A DNA stretch of 64,000 bases, taken from the IMG/VR virus record IMGVR_UViG_3300036766_001719. One strand, given 5' to 3'. Both the position numbers and the translations under genes were made by a program. Source of the DNA: an uncultured virus (IMG/VR IMGVR_UViG_3300036766_001719). Taxonomy: Duplodnaviria; Heunggongvirae; Uroviricota; Caudoviricetes. Shown piece by piece: positions 6,520-64,000 of the stretch (its first letter is position 1; each line of letters opens with the position of its first letter). The notes beneath the pieces are model-generated. The model was given only the letters and a program-made list of their open reading frames with translations. It had not been told where the DNA came from and ran no database searches.

Positions 6520-7500
6520 TTACTTGAGAAATGACAGTTGTAAACCTTTTTTTGAGAACCTTTCAAAGAATTGATCTGAAATCTTGGCAATTCTTGATTT
6601 TTCTTGCAAATCTTGAATCAAATTATCTGGAAGTGTTTCAATGCCATTTAACGCACCAAATAACGCACCAATCATCGAAGCATTGGAATCAGTGTCCCCA
6701 CCGGCAGATATACATTCATACATACAATCAATACTTGTTGGATTTCTTAAAAAGAAAGCATAAGAAAATGGCAATGAATTATAAACATATGGTGATCCCC
6801 CACCAAATTTATCAACTATTTCTTGTATTGATGTGTTCTCATCGACTTTATCTAACAGTTTTATCCTATCGGTTATATCATCTTGCAAAGTTTCAGCACA
6901 AAAAACTCTACCACGTTCACTCACCTTTGCAACATAATTAATAAAGCCATTCTTAGTAAACTTATCTGGACTTGATTTCAAGCAATAATAAACCGCAAAG
7001 CATTGTGCAAAACAACTGGATATCGCCACACTTGTTCTATGTGTCATTGCAGAAAAATTCGCAAGGTCTTGAAGATATGACTGATTAAGACCCTGCATAG
7101 CAAAATACGCCCCCAAAGGAGCACATTTCATAGCAACGCCATTGCCAACACCTTTTACTTTTCCATTTTTATTAGTTAGATTGCCAGATTCTTTCCAGTG
7201 GACGCCATTTTTAAGATTTAAAACAGCTTCTCTTGTTGTGCTTCCCCACCCTGCAACTGTCTTACAATATTCTTTAACGTGATTTTCTGCAACCTTATCA
7301 AGATTAATATTTCCAGTCTCAATTAAAGCTTCGGCTATCGTTAGGGTCAATTGCGTATCATCGGTAGTACGACCTACACTAAATTCTATCTTCTTATCTT
7401 TCATGCTGCTATAAGGCTCGTTTTCAAACTTGGACCCCAAAGCATCCCCTAGCCCAATGCCAAAAAACATCCCTTTAATTTTTTCCACAATATTTTTCAT
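6520..7500 (-). CDS. ADP-ribosylglycohydrolase (DraG/ARH family)
   Basis: GDALG, TTDDTQLT, GNGVAMK, MTH, GGDTDSNASMIGAL. Confidence 0.93.
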   Translation of the reverse strand: MKNIVEKIKGMFFGIGLGDALGSKFENEPYSSMKDKKIEFSVGRTTDDTQLTLTIAEALIETGNINLDKVAENHVKEYCKTVAGWGSTTREAVLNLKNGVHWKESGNLTNKNGKVKGVGNGVAMKCAPLGAYFAMQGLNQSYLQDLANFSAMTHRTSVAISSCFAQCFAVYYCLKSSPDKFTKNGFINYVAKVSERGRVFCAETLQDDITDRIKLLDKVDENTSIQEIVDKFGGGSPYVYNSLPFSYAFFLRNPTSIDCMYECISAGGDTDSNASMIGALFGALNGIETLPDNLIQDLQEKSRIAKISDQFFERFSKKGLQLSFLK

Positions 7501-7983: not shown

Positions 7984-8658
7984 TTAAGCCTTCCTAATAA
8001 TTACCTTTTTAGCATCTCCTTCAATATTGAACTTTTTACCACCAATGCCGCCTCTTTGCAAGACATATTGTGTAATTCTAACATTATCATAAGAATCAAC
8101 AGTATATCTTGACAATAAATTTGCTAATGGCTTTTTAGTAACTACTAGAGAATTGCCCATTGTATCCAAAGAAATATAGGCAGTATCCCCATTCTTAAAT
8201 CCTAATGCCCTTAGGAACATAGAAGGGATACAAAGCGTATTCCTGCCATCTACACCATAAGGCTCATCTTCTTCATCATCCCCATCACTATCGTCCGATG
8301 TAGCGCCATTACTAGCAACAGCATCGTTTGGATCACTTTGCACTTGACCATATTGAGTAGGATCAGCCGACATAGGATGATACAAAAATGGTTGCGGACT
8401 CACATTAAGATTCACAGCAACACTACGGGTATAATCTGGTCCCATAACACCTGAATCATAAAGTTTATGAACTACTTTCTTAACTTCGTTGTGAAACACT
8501 CGTCCAGAACTTTGCTTCCTTACAGCAGTAGTTACATCAAAAGCAGTGAAAAGTTCATTTTTCTGAACTTTATCAGAAACAGTTTGTTCAATTAATTGTT
8601 GAGTAGCAGTATCACACATAGTATTTTCCTTTCTTTTCTTGTTTATTAAAGTTTCCAC
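7984..8658 (-). CDS. putative DNA-binding protein (winged helix plus AbrB-like C-terminal domain)
   Basis: FTAFDVT...VHKLY N-domain; VDGRNTLCIPSMFLRALG AbrB-like motif; start likely 8619. Confidence 0.55.
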   Translation of the reverse strand: METLINKKRKENTMCDTATQQLIEQTVSDKVQKNELFTAFDVTTAVRKQSSGRVFHNEVKKVVHKLYDSGVMGPDYTRSVAVNLNVSPQPFLYHPMSADPTQYGQVQSDPNDAVASNGATSDDSDGDDEEDEPYGVDGRNTLCIPSMFLRALGFKNGDTAYISLDTMGNSLVVTKKPLANLLSRYTVDSYDNVRITQYVLQRGGIGGKKFNIEGDAKKVIIRKA

Positions 8659-9656
8659 TTGTAAGCCAAACTAGCGACAGGAGATGGTCCTATAATTTCA
8701 TAAAATAACTTTGCTTGCGATTGAGGGAATTCAATTCTCCAACCTGTACCGTCACTATATGGTTTGACTCTGCATTTCAAATTAAACTTCTCACGCATCT
8801 TGTTACAAAGCCATTCTTGATCTTCTTTACTAAAAGATTCCGAACACATTGTAATCACTACTTGCTTAATTACAGATTCTTTTCTTCTCCAATAAGCGCT
8901 CCCATCATCCAAAAACCAATGTAAAAGTACTGTTGGAGTTAAAATGATATCTCTTGGAACAAGCTTAATAAAATTATTATTTTCTGGATACCATTTATTA
9001 AAATAAGGCTTTAATTCTTTATGTGACAAGGTACTAAAGCAAAAACATTGATGCCATTTTCCATTAGTATTATGCCACTCTTCTTTTATTCTTTCTTTGC
9101 CAGCGATTCCGCACAAAATATTTGCAACACACAAAACATGATCGTAGAATTTGTTCCTTTTTCTAAATTTAGGATAAGATTTTTCGCTTTTCTCATTCCA
9201 AATATTCATCATAGCATCACCCAATAAAGTTCCAGTTATTACTTCTTCATTCAAAATAAATCCATCATCTTTTCTATTGCATGTTAGGCCATCACTTATA
9301 CATCTAACTTCAATTCCATTCCTAATTAATGCTTGCCTTACTGAATTGGCGGTTTTTGCCCCAACTAATTCAGTAATAACGTTAGTAGAACACTTTTCAA
9401 CCTCATATTTCTGTTGCAACCAATCTTTGTCATTAAGTAAAGGATATTTCCTACAACCATATCCTTTTTTACTTCTAATTCTGAAACTATCCAAACAAGC
9501 CCTTACTGATATCCCATGTAATCTTAAAGCCCTTATAACTGTCCCAAATGCCGAGCCAATTAATTTTGCTATCTGTTTAGCAGACAGTTCTTCAACCACA
9601 TACTTCTTATACAGCCAATCTTTGTCATTCAATAAAGAATATTTCTTCGATATCAT
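8646..9656 (-). CDS. LAGLIDADG homing endonuclease with duplicated N-terminal HTH
   Basis: GTLLGDA and LHWFLDDGS; two KYxLLNDKDWL repeats. Confidence 0.85.
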   Translation of the reverse strand: MISKKYSLLNDKDWLYKKYVVEELSAKQIAKLIGSAFGTVIRALRLHGISVRACLDSFRIRSKKGYGCRKYPLLNDKDWLQQKYEVEKCSTNVITELVGAKTANSVRQALIRNGIEVRCISDGLTCNRKDDGFILNEEVITGTLLGDAMMNIWNEKSEKSYPKFRKRNKFYDHVLCVANILCGIAGKERIKEEWHNTNGKWHQCFCFSTLSHKELKPYFNKWYPENNNFIKLVPRDIILTPTVLLHWFLDDGSAYWRRKESVIKQVVITMCSESFSKEDQEWLCNKMREKFNLKCRVKPYSDGTGWRIEFPQSQAKLFYEIIGPSPVASLAYKWKL

Positions 9657-9699: not shown

Positions 9700-10995
9700 T
9701 TATTTTCCATTAGGAGAAAATTCTATTAAAAATTTCAAACTAGCCTGATTAGTTTTGTAAACAATACATTCATCATTTGATACGCCGCTTATGCCTGCTT
9801 TTGCCCAAGTTGAATCATATCCTACAACTGGATACGTTCCATAATAATTTTTAGGCACAAAAAACTTACCCATAGCCACATCTGCTAAAAACATATAACA
9901 ATTATTATCTTTATTTTTCCCATCCCAATAACCATAAGAATAATTAAGAGATTTAGTGCTACTCGGTGCGAAATAAAGGCCATCATTGAACATCCTTCCT
10001 GTCACATGTGGAGAACTAACAGGTGGAATCAATAATCCCCCTTTTAAAATACTTAAAATATTAGAGACTCGACTGCCATGCCATAATTCCCAAATAGCAC
10101 CAAGTTGCTTGCCATACTTTTCAAAATTTTGGTACATCGTATCAATCTCAATACGATAAACCTTTTTAACATCCAAATGAGCGCAAGAATGAGAAGATTG
10201 AAAAGTAGATTTATATTTCTTCCTAATTCTATCAATTTCTTTCCCATCTTCGACATACTCAAGCTTAGAATTGAATAATTTGGGCATATCTTGCTTAGTT
10301 TCACCATTCTTTGCACCAGACAAAACTAATTGCAAAGATGCCTCCAAAGCGTCCAAAATACCGTTTTGAGCCTGCACTGATTTCAAATCAGGATAAAGGA
10401 CTTTCAAATCTGGCTTCCTACGGCCAATATCTTGCGGAATCATCATTAAATAAAAATTAGCCGTAGTGAAGAAAGAAGGATTTTCATAATCCCTTTTAAC
10501 TACATAATTACCGATTTGAGTAAGCAAATTTCTAGCTTGTTGAATTGCATCTTGAGTAACAATGCCCAAAGGCGTACTGAACGTTCCCTTACTTTCATCA
10601 TAAGCAAAAGTAGTTGAATTGAGAATGTTATGTACATTAACCTTACTCAGATAATCAACAAGCTTAAAAACCACCGGATTATTGGTTTGGATTTGTTTCT
10701 TTGCCACTTCTGCAAGATTGTGGCTTTGAAGTGACTCAACTTTATGATTGGCAGTATTGGAAAGCGTTTTCTGCTTTACATAACCCTTCTTTTCCTTCTC
10801 CCTACACTTACTTCCATAAAACCTTTCGGCTTCATATTGTCCAGCATGTGCAAACGTCTTGCTTTGTCCATCTTCACCAACTCGTCCCCACTGCGTTTTT
10901 ACACTATGGTCCGCATATCTTGTAATGTTCCAAAACTTATTGGAATTAGCCACGATGTCAGCTAAAATATACCTATCTTCTTGTACAGTAGACAT
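9700..10995 (-). CDS. WGR-domain poly(ADP-ribose) polymerase
   Basis: WGRVG...KEKKGY (WGR); FYLMMIPQ regulatory domain; LWHGS, GLYFAPSSTKSLNYS, NDECIVY (H-Y-E triad). Confidence 0.93.
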   Translation of the reverse strand: MSTVQEDRYILADIVANSNKFWNITRYADHSVKTQWGRVGEDGQSKTFAHAGQYEAERFYGSKCREKEKKGYVKQKTLSNTANHKVESLQSHNLAEVAKKQIQTNNPVVFKLVDYLSKVNVHNILNSTTFAYDESKGTFSTPLGIVTQDAIQQARNLLTQIGNYVVKRDYENPSFFTTANFYLMMIPQDIGRRKPDLKVLYPDLKSVQAQNGILDALEASLQLVLSGAKNGETKQDMPKLFNSKLEYVEDGKEIDRIRKKYKSTFQSSHSCAHLDVKKVYRIEIDTMYQNFEKYGKQLGAIWELWHGSRVSNILSILKGGLLIPPVSSPHVTGRMFNDGLYFAPSSTKSLNYSYGYWDGKNKDNNCYMFLADVAMGKFFVPKNYYGTYPVVGYDSTWAKAGISGVSNDECIVYKTNQASLKFLIEFSPNGK

Positions 10996-24293: not shown

Positions 24294-24509
24294 TCAACCA
24301 ACCATAATTTTTGGAATTATCTGAAGGGAAAACTTTTCTTGGTACTTTTTGGCTACTGTGATTGCAATTTGTTTCTGAAAAAAATTCCGCACGGTGCCTG
24401 TTAATATAAGGTTATTATCATATATGCAAGCTTTGATTTGAAAATTCCTTACTACTGAATTGGCCGCTAACTCAGCAGTCAATTCTTCCGAAATGCGATG
24501 GTAGTCCAT
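24294..24509 (-). CDS. BON-domain protein
   Basis: LILTGTVRNFFQKQIA. Confidence 0.7.
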   Translation of the reverse strand: MDYHRISEELTAELAANSVVRNFQIKACIYDNNLILTGTVRNFFQKQIAITVAKKYQEKFSLQIIPKIMVG

Positions 24510-24758
24510 ACATGCCTTTCAAATGTTGTAGTCACAAAGTAGAAAAGCATCTTACCAGCCTTATTTTGAAATTCAAGAAAATTTTTAAAATTCTTCATAT
24601 CTACTTCGTGATCTTGACCAGGCTATTTGAAAGCTGTTTTAAGTGCCGCCTCTCTTTTTACTATGAGATCATGCTTATTGACGAACAAATCAATTTGCGA
24701 GTTGGTGGCCCTATACTGGACAAATGTTCATTTTGTAAAAAATGTTATGAATGCTGCA

Positions 24759-29628: not shown

Positions 29629-30069
29629 CTAATACAATTCTAATTGACCAGTTATTTCATCAATTTTACCATTATGATCTGGCCCTATAGCACAAGCAGT
29701 AACAGTAGGAACCCCATGAAATTCAGTTCTTCCTGCATCCGTAACTACCCACGCTTCTATATTCTTGCCTTTAGCTCTTGCTACAACTTCCATAAGGGCT
29801 TCTTCGCTATCTACTCTAACACAAACCTTAGTAAATGAGCCAGTCAACCACTCCACTTCCTCTTTGGAAAAGTTGACCATAAAAATTAATTTTAAGGCAA
29901 TCCACAATCTTTTGAAAAAACTAGCCCTAAAACCAAGTCTGTTAACCAGCCACATCATTGAAGCGTGACTCGCCTGACTTATCTCTTTCCCACGACGAAG
30001 TTTCAAATCTTTGCGAATTACAATTATTTGCTTGATTTGTCTTTCCAAGTCAGCCATAAAAATATACAC
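29629..30069 (-). CDS. pth2: peptidyl-tRNA hydrolase Pth2
   Basis: KQIIVIRKDL..RGK..QASHAS, DAGRTEF, TACAIGP. Confidence 0.9.
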   Translation of the reverse strand: MYIFMADLERQIKQIIVIRKDLKLRRGKEISQASHASMMWLVNRLGFRASFFKRLWIALKLIFMVNFSKEEVEWLTGSFTKVCVRVDSEEALMEVVARAKGKNIEAWVVTDAGRTEFHGVPTVTACAIGPDHNGKIDEITGQLELY

Positions 30070-42226: not shown

Positions 42227-43460
42227 AAGCAGCCACACTATGTAATGCTGTATGGAGAACCAGCATAACTTCACTTACAGGTTCAGGGTTTATCCGACCG
42301 TCGCCCAACGTGTCTTACTCGCCAAGCACTTCGGGGCGATCAGGTTCGTGTACAACCACTTTCTCGCCGCCAGAAAGGACAAGTACCTCAAGGCGAAGAA
42401 GTCGTCCAACTACTACGGTGACTGCAAGGACTTGACCGAGTTGAAGAAGACGCACTTGTGGATGAAGGAAGTGTACTCGCAGAGCCTCCAGTTCTCCTTG
42501 AAGTGTTTGGACGCCGCCTACAACAATTTCTTCGCAGGTAGAGGAAAGTTTCCTGTCTTCAAGAAGAAGTACAGTCACCAGTCCTTCCGTGTGCCTCAGA
42601 ACGTGAAGGTTGGTGACGACCATCTGTACGTTCCGAAGTTTCTGGAAGGCATCAAGATGGTGAAGCACCGTGATGTTGAGGGCGAGATCAAGTTTGCTAC
42701 CATCAGCAGGAACAGGAGCGGTCAGTACCATGTCAGCATCACGGTAGAGAGGAACATCAAGACATTGCCGAAGGTGAAGAAGGAAGTCGGCGTGGACTTG
42801 GGTATCAAGACGTTGGCGACTTGTAGTGATGGTACGGTGTACGAGAACATCAAACCGTACCGTACTCTTCGCCGCAGGATGAAGATGATCCAGCGACGGC
42901 AGAGTAGCAAGAAGAAAGGCAGCAAGAACAGAGAGCGAGCAAGGTACAAGTTAGCCAAGATACATCAGAAGATCAAGAACATTCGTCAGGATCATCTGCA
43001 CAAGACGACCACCAAGATAGTGAACGAAAACCAAGTCATCTATCTGGAGACGTTGAACGTGCAGGGCATGATGAAGAACCATTGTCTTGCAGGAGCGATT
43101 GCTGACGCTGCGTTCTACGAGACGAAGAGGATGATCCAGTACAAGGCTGATTGGTATGGTCGGCGTGTGGTGCATTTGGATCGTTGGTTTCCGAGCAGTA
43201 AAACGTGTTCGGAGTGTGGTTGGATCAAGCAAGACCTTCGCCTCAAGGATCGGACATGGACGTGTTCTCGTTGTGGGACGGAGCATGATCGTGACTTGAA
43301 TGCAGCGAAGATGATCTTGAAACAAGGCAAAATAGAGAGTAAACTACCTGTGGAACGCAGGGAAGTAAAGCGTATGGACTCAGGAAGAAAACCGACTGAA
43401 CTATCAGTCGGCTGAGGTTGAAATACGAAGCCGCTCCCCTTTAGGGGAGCGGTAGTTCAC
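42227..43460 (+). mobile_element. non-autonomous IS200/IS605-family (tnpB-only) element
   Basis: GC and codon shift; right-end hairpin CCGCTCCCC-TTTA-GGGGAGCGG then TAGTTCAC; left boundary approximate. Confidence 0.8.
42252..43415 (+). CDS. tnpB: RNA-guided endonuclease TnpB
   Basis: TYRFRVYPT HTH; RuvC GVDLG, LETL, DRDLNAA; CSEC...CSRC. Confidence 0.95.
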   Translation: MENQHNFTYRFRVYPTVAQRVLLAKHFGAIRFVYNHFLAARKDKYLKAKKSSNYYGDCKDLTELKKTHLWMKEVYSQSLQFSLKCLDAAYNNFFAGRGKFPVFKKKYSHQSFRVPQNVKVGDDHLYVPKFLEGIKMVKHRDVEGEIKFATISRNRSGQYHVSITVERNIKTLPKVKKEVGVDLGIKTLATCSDGTVYENIKPYRTLRRRMKMIQRRQSSKKKGSKNRERARYKLAKIHQKIKNIRQDHLHKTTTKIVNENQVIYLETLNVQGMMKNHCLAGAIADAAFYETKRMIQYKADWYGRRVVHLDRWFPSSKTCSECGWIKQDLRLKDRTWTCSRCGTEHDRDLNAAKMILKQGKIESKLPVERREVKRMDSGRKPTELSVG

Positions 43461-51374: not shown

Positions 51375-51439
51375 AATTATAATCTCCTCACTTAAAATAG
51401 TAAGGAGATTATTTTTTTATGGAGACGGAGCAAATAAAG

Positions 51440-51799
51440 TGGAGGTGGACGGTTTCGCTCCGTCGTGTTGCGTAATTTTGAAAGAAACTTCGTTACACGC
51501 TTTTTCAGTTGTTTTCCTAAGCTACTCATCAACTACAAGTACACCTAACAAAACTTGTAGTCAACCACCCTAATTAGTCTCGCTTCATCTTATTAGGAAT
51601 CAGACAAAGCCAGTCCCATAAATGACTCTTCATACAACTAAGAGACAGAGTTGCATGTCGAGGCTACCTTTTCTTAGGCAGCAAGAGCATAATCGCTGTT
51701 GTTAGCAATTAAGTTTTTAGTCTGTTTTTATACCAGCCAACAGACCAACTGGTGCGTGCAGTTCCAACCGCCGTTACGCAGTCGAATCAATTCACCCCC
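51440..51799 (-). ncRNA. ssrA: tmRNA, tag peptide ANNSDYALAA
   Basis: 5' GGGGGTGAATTGATTCGAC, 3' CCGTCCACCTCCA (G3:U pair); tag frame 51706..51674; TTTACA/TATAAT promoter upstream. Confidence 0.93.
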
Positions 51800-58095: not shown

Positions 58096-58740
58096 CTAGA
58101 TTCTCCTCACTGCCAAATCCTTTAAAGTAATACTCCAACTTGCCTTCCTTGGCGATTTATTCAAACAAAAATCCAAAATTTCTTCGGAAGCTACAGCAAC
58201 CGAAAGCATGATGATGTTTCTGGCCAAGGGATAATCACAAACATCACCTTCAACATCCTTTGGAACTTTGTAATTTTCATCCCAAATCACTTCTCCATAA
58301 TCTTCATAAAGACCAACATGGAGACAAGGAAGCTTTCTTGCTCTGATTTCATCCTGAATTAACTTCCTAGATGCTGAATTATCGAAGGCATCAATAACCA
58401 ATCCAGAACCCTTCAACAAAGACTTAACATTACTTCCAGTCAATTCTTTGTTACAATCATCAACTTCGACGCCAACATCACGGAAAACCTTATTTTTGAG
58501 TGCTGCAACCTTTAATGCTCCAACATCCTTTTCACCATAAACTTGTGTGTTTAGATTCTGAATTTCTACACGATCCTTATCAATAACTCTCAACTTACTG
58601 AACCCTTGGCGAACAAGATTATCAGTAAGATTACTACCTAAAGCACCAACACCACAAATAGTAATATTAAAAGTCCCCAACTTGGCAATTAAGTCCTTGC
58701 CACGGTAGATTTCCTCATGATGGAACTTTGAATTAGCCAT
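58096..58740 (-). CDS. ThiF/E1-like adenylyltransferase
   Basis: ICGVGALGS, IDKDRVEIQNLNTQ, K, VIDAFDN, DVCDYP; start MANSK behind AAGGA. Confidence 0.9.
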   Translation of the reverse strand: MANSKFHHEEIYRGKDLIAKLGTFNITICGVGALGSNLTDNLVRQGFSKLRVIDKDRVEIQNLNTQVYGEKDVGALKVAALKNKVFRDVGVEVDDCNKELTGSNVKSLLKGSGLVIDAFDNSASRKLIQDEIRARKLPCLHVGLYEDYGEVIWDENYKVPKDVEGDVCDYPLARNIIMLSVAVASEEILDFCLNKSPRKASWSITLKDLAVRRI

Positions 58741-58741
58741 A

Positions 58742-59305
58742 TTACTTTCCTTTATTCTTATAAATGGCTTCACACCACTCTACCAATTCTTTTTCTGTTA
58801 ATGTTCTTTTCATCCAATTAACGACTTTGTGAACCCATTGAACATTGTCAAAAACATATCCTTTAGAGTTGTCTATTCTATCTAAAGATGCAGTTTGTCT
58901 CTTAGGATTCTTAATATACCTTCGCTCAAACCTTAGCGGCACTCCAGAAATTGCACATTTCCCATCTTGTTTAAGAAACAAATCCCAAACTTCTTCAATA
59001 GAAACATCTAATGTTTTATTTCTTTTCAAAGCACCATGCTTAAAATGACTCCAATAAGCACCACTTATCTCTCCGCATCCACGCCAATTATCTGCTGGCC
59101 CTCTGCACTTACCACAACTTTTAGTATTTTTACTAGTTAACGATCTTCCTATTATATCTTTTATATTGCCACATTCACATTGACACGTCCATAATGATAA
59201 ACCGCCTTTCTTATCTGATTCCGCAAGCACTTTTAATTTTCCAAACTCTCTCCCTACAAGTTCTAACTTATTCCGAGCCTTTTTCATATAACTCCTTGAG
59301 TACAT
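58742..59305 (-). CDS. HNH-type homing endonuclease
   Basis: FGKLKV...WTCQCECG...KSCG; ASLDRIDNSKGY..DNVQWVHK..N.MK. Confidence 0.85.
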   Translation of the reverse strand: MYSRSYMKKARNKLELVGREFGKLKVLAESDKKGGLSLWTCQCECGNIKDIIGRSLTSKNTKSCGKCRGPADNWRGCGEISGAYWSHFKHGALKRNKTLDVSIEEVWDLFLKQDGKCAISGVPLRFERRYIKNPKRQTASLDRIDNSKGYVFDNVQWVHKVVNWMKRTLTEKELVEWCEAIYKNKGK

Positions 59306-59347
59306 AATCGCTTTATCTTAAATAAAGTAGTTATGTACTCAAGAAAA

Positions 59348-59735
59348 TTAATCTTCAATTTCAGTAGTGCCTACCAATAAATTACCAAATCTTTTAATCT
59401 CACATTCCACTGGTTCTTCAACATCGTCATCATACCAATACGCACGCAACCCATCTGTTCCATGAATCGCACAAATAAGACTTTTCCCTAAACAACTCAC
59501 CCATGCGGTCATGGTTTTAAAATCACGGTCACTTGGCGAGGCAGTCCAATGCGGATGCGTATGTAAAAATCCTATAACATTATGGTGAGCGTCTTCTTGA
59601 TTAAGAACATAGTAAGGATCAAAGTCAACACTTGCTATCTTCCCTGAAGTCATCTTACGGCGCTTCGCCCACCACAACTTGCCTTTCTGTCCCCCCTACC
59701 AAAATCCAACAATGCTCAACTTGACAGTCTATCTT
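59348..59735 (-). CDS. JAB/MPN metallo-isopeptidase, frameshifted in a G6 run
   Basis: IGFLHTHP....PS..D; N-terminal EHCWILVG lies in another frame joined at 59691..59696. Confidence 0.8.
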
Positions 59736-59742
59736 CAATTCA

Positions 59743-60627
59743 TTAGTCGTAGTCATCTTCGTATTCTCCACCATAATTGTCACCTACACGCACGATCCTA
59801 TGCCTGTTTCGCCCCTCCTTGATAACACCTACTAAACTTTGCAAATCAAAGGCTTTATCTCCGCCAGAGAGACAAATGCCAGCAGATTCTACACTCAAAT
59901 CATCCTTTTTTACAACAGAACGATGACGTTCACCTTCTACAGTATACTCAATTGTATAAGTATTACCACGTTCAATATAGCTGGAATATCTTGCTCCTGC
60001 CCTACGCAAAGCCGACTTGATTCTTTCTTCATTCTTATCCTTCTTGGCTTCAATATCAGCTTCTAAAGCAGGCCCATATGCCATTAAATAGGCATCTTGT
60101 TCTTCTACTGACATACCAGAACATACCAACTTACCAGGATCAACAAGCTTATTCAGACATTCACGCAAATAAATTGGAATCTTTGGATCGGCCCCAGCAC
60201 AAGTTTCTTGAAACCAACAATTTGCACCATCAAATCTAGCTTGTACCACTTCGAAAAGCTGAACTTCTTCTGGCAAAAAGACTGGAACAAGACCAGTTAC
60301 CTTAAATCTAGTATCTGACCTAGATGCAGGCAACCCCAGCCATTGATTGTTGTTATTTCTGCACAAAATCAATCTAATTGCAGGAAATAAATTAAAATAT
60401 TGAGTTTTCTCAGACATATTAGGGGCACGAACAAACTTAGCTTCCTTATAAGAAGCAGGAGAAAATACACCCCATCCTTGAAAATCCTTTGGCTTAGAAA
60501 CACTTAAATTAACAATAATTCCAGAAATACGAACTCTAATCGGCTTCCCTCTAAGAACAGGAGATAAGAATTGAGAGTTAAAAAAAGCGTTCTCTTCAGC
60601 AGCCAGTTTGTCAAATAAGTTACTCAT
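59743..60627 (-). CDS. hypothetical protein with E2/UBC-like C-terminal domain
   Basis: Start MSNLF behind AGGA; C-terminal SAGICLSG...FDLQSLVGVI resembles the E2 GxICL motif. Confidence 0.55.
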   Translation of the reverse strand: MSNLFDKLAAEENAFFNSQFLSPVLRGKPIRVRISGIIVNLSVSKPKDFQGWGVFSPASYKEAKFVRAPNMSEKTQYFNLFPAIRLILCRNNNNQWLGLPASRSDTRFKVTGLVPVFLPEEVQLFEVVQARFDGANCWFQETCAGADPKIPIYLRECLNKLVDPGKLVCSGMSVEEQDAYLMAYGPALEADIEAKKDKNEERIKSALRRAGARYSSYIERGNTYTIEYTVEGERHRSVVKKDDLSVESAGICLSGGDKAFDLQSLVGVIKEGRNRHRIVRVGDNYGGEYEDDYD

Positions 60628-60656
60628 AAAAATTTCCTGGTAGACTATAATATAGT

Positions 60657-63000
<2,344 letters not shown>

Positions 63001-63051
63001 CTACTCTAGCCTAACACAACATTAAATTAATTACTATCCCTAAATCAAAAA

Positions 63052-63122
63052 ATCCGTCTTAGTTTGGAAAGCTTTTTACCATTTGCAACAATGTTTGTAA
63101 GCTTTCCGTATCGGAGACGGAT
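63052..63122 (-). ncRNA. structured RNA copy B (Y-RNA-like candidate)
   Basis: ATCCGTCT/AGACGGAT and GGAAAGCT/AGCTTTCC stems; shares AAAGCTTACAAACA with copy A. Confidence 0.7.
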
Positions 63123-63154
63123 GTATCGGTGTTGCCATTTAAGGCAACTCTATA

Positions 63155-63274
63155 TGGCGGGCGAGGCAAGATTTTACTTGCATACTTCAGTTTTACGGAC
63201 TGATGCTTGTATGTTTCTAAAGTAGGGAACACTTGCATGTTCTAGTCTTAAAAACTGGTTTCAGCTACTCGCCC
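63155..63274 (-). ncRNA. tRNA-like RNA with ~50-nt hairpin insertion in the D-loop
   Basis: GGGCGAG/CTCGCCC-GCCA; TCAGT CCGTAAA ACTGA; GCAAG TAAAAT CTTGC. Confidence 0.75.
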
Positions 63275-63841
63275 ATAATGTTCTTTTCTATGGCAATTCC
63301 CGCACAACAAAATACACTTCATGATCTCTTCTAAAATCACCTTAATAGAACACTTTTTATGACAAAGGTTTCCAATTACATCTCTTTTGTCTTTAATGTG
63401 GTGAAATTGCAAACATTCTGTATCTTTTAGAGCACAAACCGCACAACTACTCATAGACTTATAATCCCATACAAACGCTATGTTTCTATTTACTCTTGGG
63501 TTTAAGTTAACGTAATTATCATCTTTCTTGTGAAATTTTAAATGGCAATTTACACACAGCAAATCGCATTTATTTATTTCCTCTAGAACTATAGCGTGAC
63601 TAAATCTAGTAATGCCATCGGCTATCTCAAATAACTTTTCCTCTGGATTTCTGTGATGAAACTCCAAGCATATTACTTCTTTCTCTCCACATTTGATGCA
63701 ATAACCTTTACTTTTTAAATCGTTAATTAACGACTTAAAATTTTTTCTACTCCTACTTGCTCTCTCTCGAAAGCTTTCTTTGTTGTTTGAATAATAAGAG
63801 GCTCTCCATCTTACCTCTTCCGCTTTGTCTTTATAAGGCAT
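63248..63841 (-). CDS. tandem double-HNH endonuclease
   Basis: Two CxxC...L(E/Q)FHH...KC.LLC.NCH units. Confidence 0.85.
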   Translation of the reverse strand: MPYKDKAEEVRWRASYYSNNKESFRERASRSRKNFKSLINDLKSKGYCIKCGEKEVICLEFHHRNPEEKLFEIADGITRFSHAIVLEEINKCDLLCVNCHLKFHKKDDNYVNLNPRVNRNIAFVWDYKSMSSCAVCALKDTECLQFHHIKDKRDVIGNLCHKKCSIKVILEEIMKCILLCGNCHRKEHYGRVAETSF

Positions 63842-63870
63842 AACTTAAAGTAGTTATACCTTATTGATTT

Positions 63871-63938
63871 AACCGTCCAAGTTAAAAAAGCTGTTATAAA
63901 CACCACTTGTTTGTAAGCTTTTTAGGTGCGGGACGGAT
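63871..63938 (-). ncRNA. structured RNA copy A (Y-RNA-like candidate)
   Basis: CCGTCC/GGACGG and AAAAAGCT/AGCTTTTT stems; compensatory changes versus copy B. Confidence 0.7.
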
Positions 63939-63941
63939 TAG

Positions 63942-64000
63942 TGGCAGCGATAGGATTTGAACCTATGATCTCAACGTTATGAGCGTTGCGAGATAACCAC
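63942..64000 (-). tRNA. tRNA with CAT anticodon (Met/Ile2), 5' part outside window
   Basis: CAACG CTCATAA CGTTG; ATAGG TTCAAAT CCTAT. Confidence 0.85.

Follow-up and report, generated by a model that had tools for sequence, protein, structure and literature searches.

What purpose might a tRNA-shaped RNA serve when it is encoded next to a gene for Ro60? This question is raised by a stretch of 64,000 nucleotides of DNA from an uncultured huge phage (hereafter the window, meaning the whole stretch analysed), in which a gene of 120 bases on the minus strand (63274..63155) codes for such an RNA, with a hairpin inserted into its D-loop, 197 nt upstream of a Ro60 gene on the same strand. The conservation of Ro60 and its Y RNAs extends from bacteria to humans, and to our knowledge the purpose of the tRNA-like part in bacterial Y RNAs is an open question. 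Precedents for tRNA-like Y RNAs next to Ro60 exist in bacteria as well as in phages, going by those portions of PMC4201824 and PMC12135203 that deal with them. The features on which the original prediction was based, i.e., a perfect acceptor stem, CCA, a CCGTAAA loop with the GTA triplet and C33, a 6-nt T-loop and a D-loop insert, are all present on the minus strand:

63155..63274, minus strand: tRNA-shaped RNA, a 'type 2' member, with a tRNA body, a module in the D-loop and 3' GCCA encoded
63213..63255, minus strand: D-loop insert, a conserved module forming a 43-nt hairpin that folds on its own and whose homologous hairpins covary
63187..63203, minus strand: anticodon arm UCAGU-CCGUAAA-ACUGA (C33, GUA triplet), RNA positions 72-88, from sequence and fold
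63166..63181, minus strand: T arm GCAAG-UAAAAU-CUUGC with the degenerate 6-nt loop UAAAAU, RNA positions 94-109, from sequence and fold

The acceptor stem (GGGCGAG/CUCGCCC, 7 bp, RNA positions 1-7/110-116) is followed by G117 and by CCA at 118-120, and the D stem (GCU/AGC, 3 bp) occupies positions 10-12/68-70. Within the insert, helix H1 (GUUUUUAAG/UUUAGAAAC, RNA positions 20-28/54-62) leads via an internal loop (ACUA/CCUAC) to helix H2 with its GCAA loop (GAACAU-GCAA-GUGUUC, RNA positions 33-48). Exactly this cloverleaf is the minimum-energy fold of the RNA at -35.4 kcal/mol, compared to -20.9 +/- 2.9 kcal/mol for shuffled sequences (z -4.93; 0 of 200 shuffles equally good). When the ARAGORN check proposed at the outset was run, the RNA was not called as a tRNA, and the Rfam tRNA model (RF00005) gave no match to it either at the gathering score or at E<=10. 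A search of the phage database by DNA returned nothing beyond a tRNA-sized match, and the sole sequencing run containing the stretch is a DNA run, possibly of the source sample, with no RNA run listed.

The RNA belongs to a larger family. Its relatives come from loci gathered via the Ro60 protein; in viral contigs a single Ro60 protein as query found no relatives, and an alignment as query found them. A covariance model built from 28 relatives (R1), with which the target RNA scores 96 bits (E 1.9e-23), has 221 matches in 99 sources (564,628 bases) when the limit is set at E<=0.01. Without exception, the top 67 of these (at least 65 bits) are full-length, share the strand of Ro60 and lie upstream of a divergent huge-phage Ro60/TROVE gene. 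Matches of 40-50 bits from GC-rich distant clades were mis-registered when folded and were excluded from the type-2 count. A relaxed descriptor scan yielded many false matches with 15-16 of 17 pairs, and from its output only those members were kept that had perfect stems or support from the model. The family RNAs form arrays of ~5-15 copies with many anticodons. Type-2 RNAs carry an entire tRNA body as cargo, from the D-loop of which the GNRA-capped module projects, the ends of the RNA being the acceptor stem and CCA. The same module is found with other cargos and in the opposite connectivity in type-1 tRNA bodies, hairpin bodies and empty cassettes, where it flanks tRNA bodies or closes empty hairpins, and it also occurs in the 5'UTR of Ro60. 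A probable orthologue of the target RNA in another phage (G001 24405-24525) has kept N33-GUA-AA, the module and a perfect acceptor stem; an exact pattern for such orthologues matched two known loci only, both in viral contigs, and none in metagenome contigs. A literature search on this architecture (with the supplementary phage lists of PMC4201824 outside its scope) found no module-bearing tRNA arrays beside Ro60, and this huge-phage RNA family in arrays directly upstream of the Ro60 operon appears to be previously undescribed.

The insert hairpin is a conserved three-helix module, ACUUGGAC / GUCCCCUAC / CUUACAAAC, which is rod-like in every family member and joined at its H0 end to the variable cargo. 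In the consensus, helix H0 (AAAC/GUUU) is followed by an internal loop (UAC/AC) and the covarying helix H1, and on the distal side by an internal loop (CCNAC/ACUU) and helix H2 (GUCC../..GGAC), with the spacing from GUCCCC to CUUACAAAC fixed at 19 nt. RNAalifold applied to 28 relatives recovered the acceptor, the insert hairpin, the anticodon arm and the T arm. In alignment A3, 90.7% of the cells of the insert hairpin are paired, in contrast to 70.4% after shuffling (0 of 500), with a covariation score of 0.673 versus 0.284 and at most 56% in slid controls. A second alignment of 27 sequences (26 non-seed sequences and the window copy) gave 84.7% versus 69.0% (0 of 500) and a covariation score of 0.528 versus 0.237, this set being not fully independent as it was retrieved with R1, which includes the hairpin pairs; in the initial selection of sequences the hairpin was not used as a criterion. 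H1 complementarity is partner-specific in both connectivities (0.738 vs 0.636 +/- 0.012 and 0.720 vs 0.620 +/- 0.007). The window copy deviates from the consensus at a near-invariant G-C pair of H2, which speaks against the reading favoured below, even though the change is compensatory. In addition, G-U pairs are frequent in the hairpin, which favours a structure at the level of RNA over one at the level of DNA.

Canonical tRNAs have a D-loop of 7-11 nt with G18G19, U33 together with a purine at position 37, and a 7-nt T-loop of the form UUCRANY. With its 7-bp stem and 3' CCA the target RNA has the acceptor end of a canonical tRNA, but its 3-bp D stem encloses 55 nt with no GG after the module, its T-loop has only 6 nt, and its anticodon loop, which has the 7 nt and the A37 of a tRNA, carries C33 instead of U33. 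Bacterial tRNA-Tyr is furthermore a class II tRNA with a long variable arm and A73, whereas the target RNA combines a Tyr-type anticodon with G at 73 and a 5-nt variable region of class-I shape. Since the elbow contacts and U33 are lost, the window copy most likely does not decode, as judged from its sequence (C33, 6-nt T-loop, absence of the D-loop GG, class-I shape with a Tyr-type anticodon), and the non-decoding scaffold of the original prediction is to that extent likely. A putative role as a decoy for anticodon nucleases was also part of that prediction. Across the family, the D-loop GG is absent from 14 of 14 members without a UUC T-loop, the window copy included, whereas among the 40 scorable members that have a UUC loop it is absent from 8, and this joint loss points to a coordinated loss of the elbow and not to random decay. 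Many family members, however, are tRNA-like in full, with UUCGAnU T-loops, the D-loop GG and CU-NNN-AA loops (Met, Phe, Asn, Lys), so that a role in translation, or a removal of the module, is possible for such competent-looking copies.

The array is directly followed by the operon, in the order Ro60 (TROVE and vWA) - o310 - JAB - ThiF, and a tmRNA gene is found elsewhere in the window:

61462..62958, minus strand: divergent Ro60/TROVE and vWA gene, 498 aa (PDB match, PHROG, AF2/Foldseek, vWA_Ro60)
59743..60675, minus strand: o310, conserved operon partner (found by tblastn in 55 loci, in several of which it is the gene next after Ro60)
59348..59677, minus strand: JAB-domain protein encoded in this operon (match to Prok-JAB at E 1.4e-5, with orthologues down to 1e-10; 31 loci)
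58096..58773, minus strand: ThiF/E1-like protein of the same operon (Pfam ThiF E 7.5e-28; 27 loci)
51437-51799: tmRNA, a separate gene (Rfam)

The 498-aa neighbour is a Ro60, with a HEAT-repeat ring and a C-terminal vWA domain in its predicted structure. It matches the Ro60 of phage phiLo in PDB 9KOP/9L5Y (E 1.2e-5), phiRo60 being its closest solved relative, as well as phrog_850 and VWA_2, with vWA_Ro60 in homologues, and the top 13 Foldseek matches of its AF2 model (pLDDT 82, pTM 0.72) are all Ro60/Rsr/phiRo60 structures (TM 0.55-0.67, ~510-570 columns, full length). In a protein search the family has >3,000 members, and 515 related metagenome stretches were found. For o310 there was no sequence family and no usable match in a protein atlas search; its AF2 model (pLDDT 89.6) suggests a coiled coil and beta-barrels weakly like S1/OB RNA-binding domains, with weak Foldseek matches (E ~1e-3, TM 0.14-0.26). 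There are three further operon proteins, and o310 with its S1/OB-like barrels could be the real partner of the RNAs, which is a point against docking to Ro60.

In the window, exact module motifs occur solely at 63050-63936, and the following further elements lie in or beside the array:

63131..63148, minus strand: small hairpin GUUGCC-UUAAAU-GGCAAC directly 3' of the target RNA, without a U-run (-10.1 kcal/mol, z -4.5)
63054..63120, minus strand: 'empty' cassette, the module in the opposite connectivity (CCGUCUCC..CUUACAAAC - short tip - ..ACUAAGACGG), followed by a U-run (motif matches; -25.4 kcal/mol, z -5.3)
62973..62996, minus strand: mini-hairpin ACUUGGAUGC-GAAA-GCGUCCCG in the Ro60 5'UTR, ~15 nt before the ribosome-binding site
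63248..63841, minus strand: HNH homing-endonuclease ORF inserted in the array, its final 27 nt overlapping the 5' part of the target RNA (PHROG HNH families, E 3e-36; ORF list)
63873..63936, minus strand: another 'empty' cassette with the module, situated upstream of the HNH gene (exact motif matches; fold z -3.0)
63942..64000, minus strand: gene for a tRNA or a tRNA-like RNA, truncated where the window ends and possibly one more member of the array (Rfam tRNA 40.6 bits, 5'-truncated; R1 model positions 67-128)

The hairpin at 63131..63148 is possibly a 3' end or processing signal; a promoter/terminator scan gave nothing above shuffles and no terminator-like site. The mini-hairpin of the Ro60 5'UTR, the stem of which covaries, was found in 8 of 81 distinct upstream regions, namely those of the closest relatives.

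As the loci were gathered via Ro60, the claim of linkage rests on scans of three near-complete phage genomes of 373, 390 and 595 kb (~1.36 Mb in total). In these, all 21 R1 matches of at least 40 bits lie within ~4.5 kb upstream of Ro60, the X-strand pattern gave 25 matches, all in the Ro60 array and on the array strand (reversed control 0), and 19 of the 21 matches to the Y-loop-X pattern fall in the array (control 1). Outside the array, one of these genomes, a complete one, carries 55 ordinary tRNAs (among them Met x3, Lys-UUU x3, Arg-UCU x2 and Trp x2), none with a module match; since these duplicate most array anticodons (CAU, UUU, UCU, CCA), the array RNAs are not needed for decoding. The suggested link to the Ro system is thus strongly supported by genomics, with Ro60 197 nt downstream and the module confined to arrays before Ro60.

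With somewhat better than even confidence, we therefore consider the target RNA to be a mimic of tRNA that does not decode and resembles a Y RNA, with its D-loop arm as a putative handle for the Ro60 operon. Given that the family is found only beside the Ro60 gene, the RNA probably docks Ro60 rather than decoding. The 120-base gene would be transcribed as one RNA, the distal H2 and internal loop would form the docking site for the phage Ro60, like the conserved stem of Y RNAs, and the tRNA-shaped part may show a tRNA-like surface to some tRNA-binding factor or compete for that factor. It is from the observed structure, conservation, covariation and exclusive linkage to the Ro60 operon that we infer Ro60 binding and an effect downstream of it.

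The closest comparison is with YrlA (RF02553), which according to the relevant parts of PMC4201824 and 10.1101/312249 is likewise a modular ncRNA beside Ro60/Rsr with a presumed Ro60-binding stem and a tRNA-like domain. The original statement that the topology of YrlA is different and permuted agrees with these papers (PMC4201824; bioRxiv 10.1101/312249) as far as they treat the fold: the ends of YrlA make up the Ro60 stem, which occupies the position of the anticodon stem, a closed loop stands in for the acceptor stem, and an anticodon loop and CCA are lacking, whereas in the target RNA the ends are the acceptor stem and CCA, there is an anticodon arm, and the conserved stem sits capped in the D-loop. 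The type-1 RNAs and empty cassettes of the array, unlike type 2, do have the module as terminal stem. The Rfam models RF02553 and RF00019 gave no match in 62900-64000 at E<=10, and relatives reach 25-26 bits with the YrlA model, below its gathering score of 69. The motif also differs from YrlA, with CC-N-AC / ACUU loops and a GUCC/GGAC helix and without GNCGAA; the absence of the bacterial Ro60-site motif (GNCGAAN0-1G / CGAA) from the module is a point against Ro60 docking, as is the missing similarity to the Y_RNA and YrlA models of Rfam. The association of one module with varied cargos in both connectivities indicates a modular build as in Y RNAs. In Thermus phage phiLo, candidate Y RNAs (Yrl1 and Yrl2) are likewise found directly upstream of a phage Ro60, phiRo60 (9KOP, 9L5Y); the portion of PMC12135203 on these RNAs describes two stem-bulge-stem RNAs with CGAA in the 5'-3' terminal stem and no tRNA body, whereas here arrays are found. 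Metazoan Y RNAs, like the module, have a conserved helix with conserved unpaired bases as protein site next to a variable module, and GUCC(CC)NA is loosely like their GGUCCGA, by eye only and as given in the part of PMC4201824 concerned, but they have no tRNA body. Mimicry of tRNA with a free CCA end and extra domains is shared with tmRNA and viral tRNA-like structures, which, unlike the target RNA, have no normal anticodon arm, an mRNA-like or pseudoknot domain, and known roles. As the phage carries a tmRNA, its host is probably bacterial.

If the module is indeed the Ro60 site, a new recognition element would be defined, Ro60 could couple to near-complete tRNAs with anticodon arms and CCA ends, and the question of why Y RNAs mimic tRNA would become directly testable, with a large and diverse virus group as a natural experiment in which one module is combined with many tRNA bodies in two connectivities, always before Ro60 and OB-fold/JAB/E1-like genes.

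An alternative but unlikely hypothesis takes the RNAs to be precursors from which real phage tRNAs are made, with the module as an intervening or processing element. From these, either the D-loop hairpin (type 2) or a leader-trailer helix (type 1) would be excised and the ends rejoined or trimmed, the cutter being an unknown endonuclease, RNase III or RNase P and Ro60 possibly a maturation or quality-control factor. In line with this scenario are the full tRNA features and sensible anticodons of many members, the scores of type-1 bodies (50-60 bits) and of one type-2 RNA (42.8 bits across the insert) with the Rfam tRNA model, and the type-1 units of the form UAC|AAACNNN...NNNGUUU-A-CCA with 7-bp acceptor stems (L011, L007), which look like a pre-tRNA whose leader pairs with its trailer. 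The insert moreover sits in the variable part of the D-loop, in some copies between short direct repeats (L034 1290-1427). Interruption of a tRNA gene at a non-canonical position, here the D-loop, by a helix-forming insert is likewise known from archaeal and algal intron-containing, split and permuted tRNA genes, and the permuted connectivity of types 1 and 2 recalls permuted tRNAs as treated in part of 10.1101/312249. However, no bulge-helix-bulge motif or defined exon junction was seen in the alignments by eye, Pfam scans of the window revealed no RNA ligase or splicing endonuclease, and in contrast to such introns the insert has a conserved sequence and is linked to a single operon. The elements are also limited to the Ro60 array, no module match falls among the 55 ordinary tRNAs of the complete genome, which duplicate most array anticodons, and even with the insert removed the window copy would be without G18G19, U33 and a 7-nt T-loop. 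The strongly conserved helix and internal-loop sequences are more in keeping with a binding site that stays in the RNA than with a spacer that is thrown away, and the unusual intron considered in the original prediction is disfavoured.

It is rather improbable that the module is a handle for another product of the operon, such as the OB/S1-like o310 or the ThiF/JAB pair, with Ro60 acting elsewhere. The conservation of o310, JAB and ThiF beside Ro60 in 55, 31 and 27 loci would fit this, as would the weak match of the o310 model to S1/OB RNA-binding proteins and the absence of the published Ro60 motif from the module; however, the o310 matches are weak, Ro60 directly adjoins the array and bears a mini-module in its own 5'UTR, and among the operon proteins Ro60 is the only one with established binding of neighbouring tRNA-like RNAs. 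Equally doubtful is the idea that huge phages possess a second, parallel set of chargeable 'armed' tRNAs, each with a candidate protein-docking arm at the elbow. Here the arm would couple individual tRNA species to a Ro60 / OB-fold / JAB / E1-like machine, which might guard phage tRNAs against host anticodon nucleases, mend their damage or put them to extra-translational use.

Very unlikely is a DNA-level repeat without any role as RNA structure, whether it serves as a promoter/terminator cassette or in recombination or is a small mobile palindrome that landed by chance in a tRNA gene. While the constant 19-nt spacing, the U-runs after some cassettes, the homing endonuclease genes in the array and the direct repeats flanking some inserts could be read in this way, the motif is found nowhere else in the ~1.36 Mb of the three genomes and can therefore be neither a promoter or terminator of general use nor a mobile element in dispersed copies. 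All copies have a single orientation, the module fits no sigma-70-like promoter or intrinsic terminator, and the compensatory changes are accompanied by many G-U pairs, which are mismatched on the opposite strand. Finally, a decayed tRNA-Tyr pseudogene with a chance insertion, as the failure of ARAGORN and Rfam to call the RNA, its degenerate T-loop, C33 and the short variable arm with a Tyr anticodon might suggest, is refuted for practical purposes by the conserved, covarying insert structure in 67 strong relatives of the same architecture and by the well-kept probable orthologue in G001 (24405-24525).

ARAGORN missed all of several type-2 genes compared, so that tRNA counts for such genomes may be too low. 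The UCAGU/ACUGA anticodon stem of the target RNA is common to the relatives L005, L018 and L022 and is also present in type-1 RNAs of L002, L004, L007 and L011.

On the minus strand of the window, a 120-nt sequence folds into a tRNA-shaped RNA with a hairpin in its D-loop and consists of the following parts:

63274..63155, minus strand: whole RNA, 120 nt
Acceptor stem: GGGCGAG/CUCGCCC, then G and CCA
Positions 8-9: UA
D stem: GCU/AGC, 3 bp, enclosing 55 nt
D-loop hairpin, RNA positions 20-62: GUUUUUAAG/UUUAGAAAC, internal loop ACUA/CCUAC, GAACAU-GCAA-GUGUUC
Anticodon arm: UCAGU-CCGUAAA-ACUGA, with C33 and the triplet GUA
Variable region: 5 nt
T arm: GCAAG-UAAAAU-CUUGC

All structural features listed in the original prediction are present in the minus-strand sequence and its fold, the minimum-energy structure being precisely this cloverleaf, at −35.4 kcal/mol (shuffled sequences −20.9 ± 2.9, z = −4.93; none of 200 shuffles as stable). 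ARAGORN, named there as a check, called five other tRNAs in the window and did not call this RNA as a tRNA, and Rfam gave no match at its position at the gathering score or at E ≤ 10.

Relatives were sought in the Ro60 locus of LR756511.1 (L001 in our numbering of the loci), in 17 loci from viral contigs and in 80 metagenome loci, the latter being the best 80 of 515 confirmed stretches. In these loci, Ro60 forms the downstream end of tRNA-rich arrays in which a motif is repeated whose strand X (CCGUCCCC-N11-CUUACAAAC(A)) pairs with strand Y (..ACUUGGACGG). In L005 and L018, where Ro60 is 73-74% identical to that of the window, the counterpart of the RNA has an exact Y-loop-X in its D-loop; the insert in the window represents this element too, GACGG/CCGUC having been replaced in a compensatory manner by GAACAU/GUGUUC. 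A descriptor scan demanding that the anticodon, T and acceptor stems be perfect, that the D stem have 3 bp or more and that the insert measure 25 nt or more recovered this architecture many times from the loci, and the consensus of 28 RNAs (MAFFT, RNAalifold) comprises the acceptor stem, a two-helix insert hairpin, the anticodon arm and the T arm. As the tRNA stems had served as selection criteria, the hairpin alone provides an independent test: 90.7% of its cells are paired as against 70.4% after shuffling (reached in 0 of 500 shuffles) and at most 56% in slid controls, the covariation score is 0.673 (shuffled 0.284), and double changes occur in 11 of 12 pairs. In a second set of 26 non-seed RNAs plus the window, which is not fully unbiased since it was found with a covariance model holding the hairpin pairs, the respective values are 84.7% versus 69.0% (0 of 500), at most 49%, 0.528 versus 0.237, and 13 of 15.

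Run at E ≤ 0.01 against the window and the 98 loci, a covariance model built from the 28 relatives (R1) yielded 221 matches, the best 67 of which (at least 65 bits) are all full-length, on the Ro60 strand and upstream of Ro60. After removal of duplicates these are 57 distinct sequences from, by our own count, 27 distinct loci, and the RNA of the window scores 96 bits. Because the loci had been chosen through Ro60, the linkage was tested on three near-complete genomes of 373, 390 and 595 kb, where the roughly 4.5 kb upstream of Ro60 contain all 21 R1 matches of at least 40 bits; among the weaker matches elsewhere, ordinary tRNAs of about 73 nt predominate. In the same genomes, the pattern GTCYCCNAYN{8,12}TACAWAC occurs 25 times, always in the Ro60 array and on the same strand (reversed control 0), and the Y-loop-X pattern 21 times, with 19 matches in the array (control 1). 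Within the window, exact copies of the motif are confined to 63050-63936, with none at its other tRNAs or the tmRNA.

As judged from alignments and folds, the conserved module is a rod in the order H0, loop UAC/AC, H1, loop CCNAC/ACUU, H2; its elements and its empty copies in the window are:

H0: AAAC(A)/(U)GUUU
H1: variable sequence, covarying
Loop between H1 and H2: CCNAC/ACUU, bases near-invariant
H2: GUCC-NN/NN-GGAC
63936..63873, minus strand: empty cassette
63120..63054, minus strand: empty cassette, then a U-run

The cargo is joined at the H0 end in all cases, and there are four forms. In type 2, to which the RNA of the window belongs, a cap, in many cases a GNRA loop, closes H2, and H0 leads into the D-loop of a tRNA; the copy in the window has lost H0, with UACA placed directly against the D stem. 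In type 1, X stands before and Y after a tRNA body, the end of the acceptor stem being supplied by H0 (units of UAC, then AAACNNN...NNNGUUU-A-CCA; 7-bp stems in L011 and L007). Type-1 bodies score 50-60 bits with the Rfam tRNA model, and the anticodon loops of some are odd (C33, or a Leu/Ser anticodon although the body is of class I). Further cargos consist of simple hairpins or a lone T-arm (L033), and in the empty cassettes H0 is closed by a few bases. The complementarity of H1 is partner-specific in both connectivities, amounting to 0.738 against 0.636 ± 0.012 with shuffled partners for Y-loop-X (n = 48) and to 0.720 against 0.620 ± 0.007 for X..Y (n = 119). A mini-module with a covarying stem, ACUUGGAYNN-GNRA-NNRUCCCC, precedes the Ro60 ribosome-binding site by 15-25 nt in 8 of 81 distinct upstream regions (the window and seven others), which represent the closest clade.

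In GC-rich distant clades, on which R1 is poorly registered, the Y strand immediately ahead of the Ro60 ribosome-binding site has the sequence ACUUGUACGG, ACUCGUGCGG or ACUUGCAAGC (altered Y strands in the upstream regions of L030, L037, L039, L056, L059, L071, L073, L087 and L090-L098), and the module therefore persists there with a shifted sequence. Some copies of the D-loop module are bordered by short direct repeats (L034 1290-1427, L033 1161-1300, L004 2729-2868; for example AAAAGGUAAG on either side), which could be a trace of the module's entry into tRNA genes by insertion or recombination. Some type-1 bodies (e.g., L002 3801-3875) combine an encoded ACCA with a C1-A72 mismatch atop the acceptor stem, a hallmark of bacterial initiator tRNA. 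Between array and Ro60, LR756511.1 has a 180-nt structured RNA with a long terminal stem (L001 2036-2215, z = −4.29), adjoined by an odd tRNA in which a long hairpin replaces the anticodon arm (L001 1933-2034, 29.6 bits with the Rfam tRNA model).

A 498-aa ORF that shares the strand of the RNA and begins 197 nt further downstream (62958..61461, minus strand) codes for a divergent Ro60, as concluded from sequence and Foldseek matches. The protein matches Thermus phage phiLo Ro60 (PDB 9KOP/9L5Y; E = 1.2e-5) and a PHROG 'RNA-binding protein' family, has vWA domains and has homologues with Pfam vWA_Ro60; the top 13 Foldseek matches of its AlphaFold model (39 sequences, pLDDT 82, pTM 0.72) comprise human and Xenopus Ro60, Deinococcus Rsr and phiLo Ro60 (about 510-570 columns, TM 0.55-0.67, E down to 7e-11). 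Among the candidates scored, 3,122 proteins belong to this family at E ≤ 0.001, several of them on contigs of 340-595 kb. The operon order Ro60, o310, JAB peptidase, ThiF/E1-like (58096-62958, minus strand) is kept in L074, L079, L070, L096 and others, and tblastn among the loci finds o310 in 55, JAB in 31 and ThiF in 27. The o310 protein (59743..60675, minus strand), which is without a sequence family, is modelled with a coiled coil and S1/OB-like barrels (pLDDT 89.6) and has weak matches to S1/OB RNA-binding proteins. No description of a Ro60-tied ubiquitin-like activation/deconjugation pair was found in the literature consulted; large sediment viruses have Ro60 together with ThiF genes, according to 10.1101/2021.07.29.454249.

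The front of the Ro60 operon, and no other place in the genomes scanned, harbours a conserved, covarying, strand-specific and G-U-rich RNA module on varied cargos. In PMC4201824, PMC12135203 and PMC7824862, Y RNAs are described as sitting by Ro60 genes in bacteria and phages and as being built from a conserved protein-binding stem and a variable, often tRNA-like module. By analogy, the distal H2 and the internal loop would form a putative Ro60 docking site, and we lean slightly towards regarding the RNA of the window as a Y-RNA analogue with inverted connectivity, its H2 end docking Ro60. The mini-module in the 5′UTR further suggests that Ro60 may exert feedback on its own mRNA. The original prediction was right that the topology of YrlA differs: according to 10.1101/312249, YrlA ends in the Ro60 stem and has a closed acceptor loop, no anticodon loop and no CCA, whereas the present RNA ends in an acceptor stem with CCA, has an anticodon arm and carries its capped, putatively protein-binding stem in the D-loop. 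Against a Y-RNA analogue weigh the lack of similarity to the Rfam Y_RNA and YrlA models and the absence from the module of the published GNCGAA/CGAA motif. Y RNAs adjacent to Ro60 have already been described in phages; arrays of tRNAs with a conserved D-loop or acceptor-stem module are undescribed in the full texts covered, and other RNAs appear to be the subject of a 2026 preprint on tRNA mimics of bacteria. We regard the module, its topology and the array organisation as distinct within the Ro60-linked tRNA-like RNAs, which are already known.

A good number of the family's RNAs resemble competent tRNAs, so that the module may be excised or the RNAs may take part in translation. The anticodons of strong type-2 RNAs include CAU, GAA, GUU/AUU, UUU, several for Arg, GUG, UGU, CCA, GCA and others, many in the canonical CU-NNN-AA frame, and type 1 looks like a pre-tRNA; the apparent competence and the pre-tRNA look would suit an intervening or processing element, which we nevertheless consider unlikely. 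The module is confined to the Ro60 array, the part supposedly discarded is strongly conserved in sequence, no bulge-helix-bulge was seen by eye in the alignments and no ligase in the Pfam scans of the window. Moreover, there is redundancy with ordinary tRNAs: a full ARAGORN scan of a related complete 373-kb phage genome (G001) found 58 tRNAs, 55 of them outside the array, including Met (three), Lys-UUU (three), Arg-UCU (two) and Trp (two), which duplicate CAU, UUU, UCU and CCA of the array. The scan found no ordinary tRNA-Tyr in this genome, where the probable orthologue of the window's RNA (24405-24525) combines the module with an acceptor stem free of mismatches, an anticodon loop CAGUAAA (A33, GUA) and a T-loop of the UGC type. 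In the RNAs with GUA the variable arm is short, in contrast to bacterial tRNA-Tyr. A CUA-anticodon tRNA of the same genome (L109 7507-7581), called 'Pyl' by ARAGORN, is a possible amber suppressor. T-loop type and D-loop GG, compared in the 57 distinct type-2 sequences, separate two structural classes:

UUC... T-loop (n = 43): GG in 32, without GG 8, undetermined 3
UGC... T-loop (n = 10): GG in 0, without GG 10, undetermined 0
Other T-loop, including UAAAAU of the window (n = 4): GG in 0, without GG 4, undetermined 0

The elbow contacts thus disappear jointly, and on these sequences this points to a different selected shape and not to random decay.

The partner might also be another operon protein, three further conserved ones (o310, JAB and ThiF) being candidates in place of Ro60, and to this we assign a rather small probability. 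That the module acts at the DNA level, as a promoter, terminator or mobile repeat, is improbable given its absence elsewhere in about 1.36 Mb, its single orientation and a covariation that tolerates G-U. The decayed tRNA-Tyr, which the original prediction had set against its own reading, is contradicted by relatives conserving the insert structure and hardly deserves any weight.

With five tRNAs, a tmRNA, HNH and LAGLIDADG homing endonucleases, a sigma factor, ClpX, PARP, ADP-ribosylglycohydrolase, PRPP synthetase, FolD, PTH2 and TnpB, the window has the appearance of a huge-phage genome. Genes of homing-endonuclease type (LAGLIDADG, HNH, endonuclease VII-like) are inserted in and around the Ro60 operon and array:

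60657-61499, plus strand: homing-endonuclease-type gene
63248-63841, minus strand: homing-endonuclease-type gene
8646-9656, minus strand: homing-endonuclease-type gene
58742-59305, minus strand: homing-endonuclease-type gene

The LAGLIDADG gene between Ro60 and o310 is found in this phage only, with a weak match in one other locus. The tmRNA (51437-51799, minus strand; Rfam 85.4 bits) lies among genes for tRNAs and for a PTH2 peptidyl-tRNA hydrolase (29629-30069), a TnpB/IS605 OrfB-type gene (OrfB_IS605, Cas12f1-like TNB) lies at 42252-43415 (plus strand) inside the phage region, and ADP-ribosylglycohydrolase and PARP-like (WGR and PARP catalytic) genes are close to each other at 6520-7500 and 9700-10995 (minus strand).
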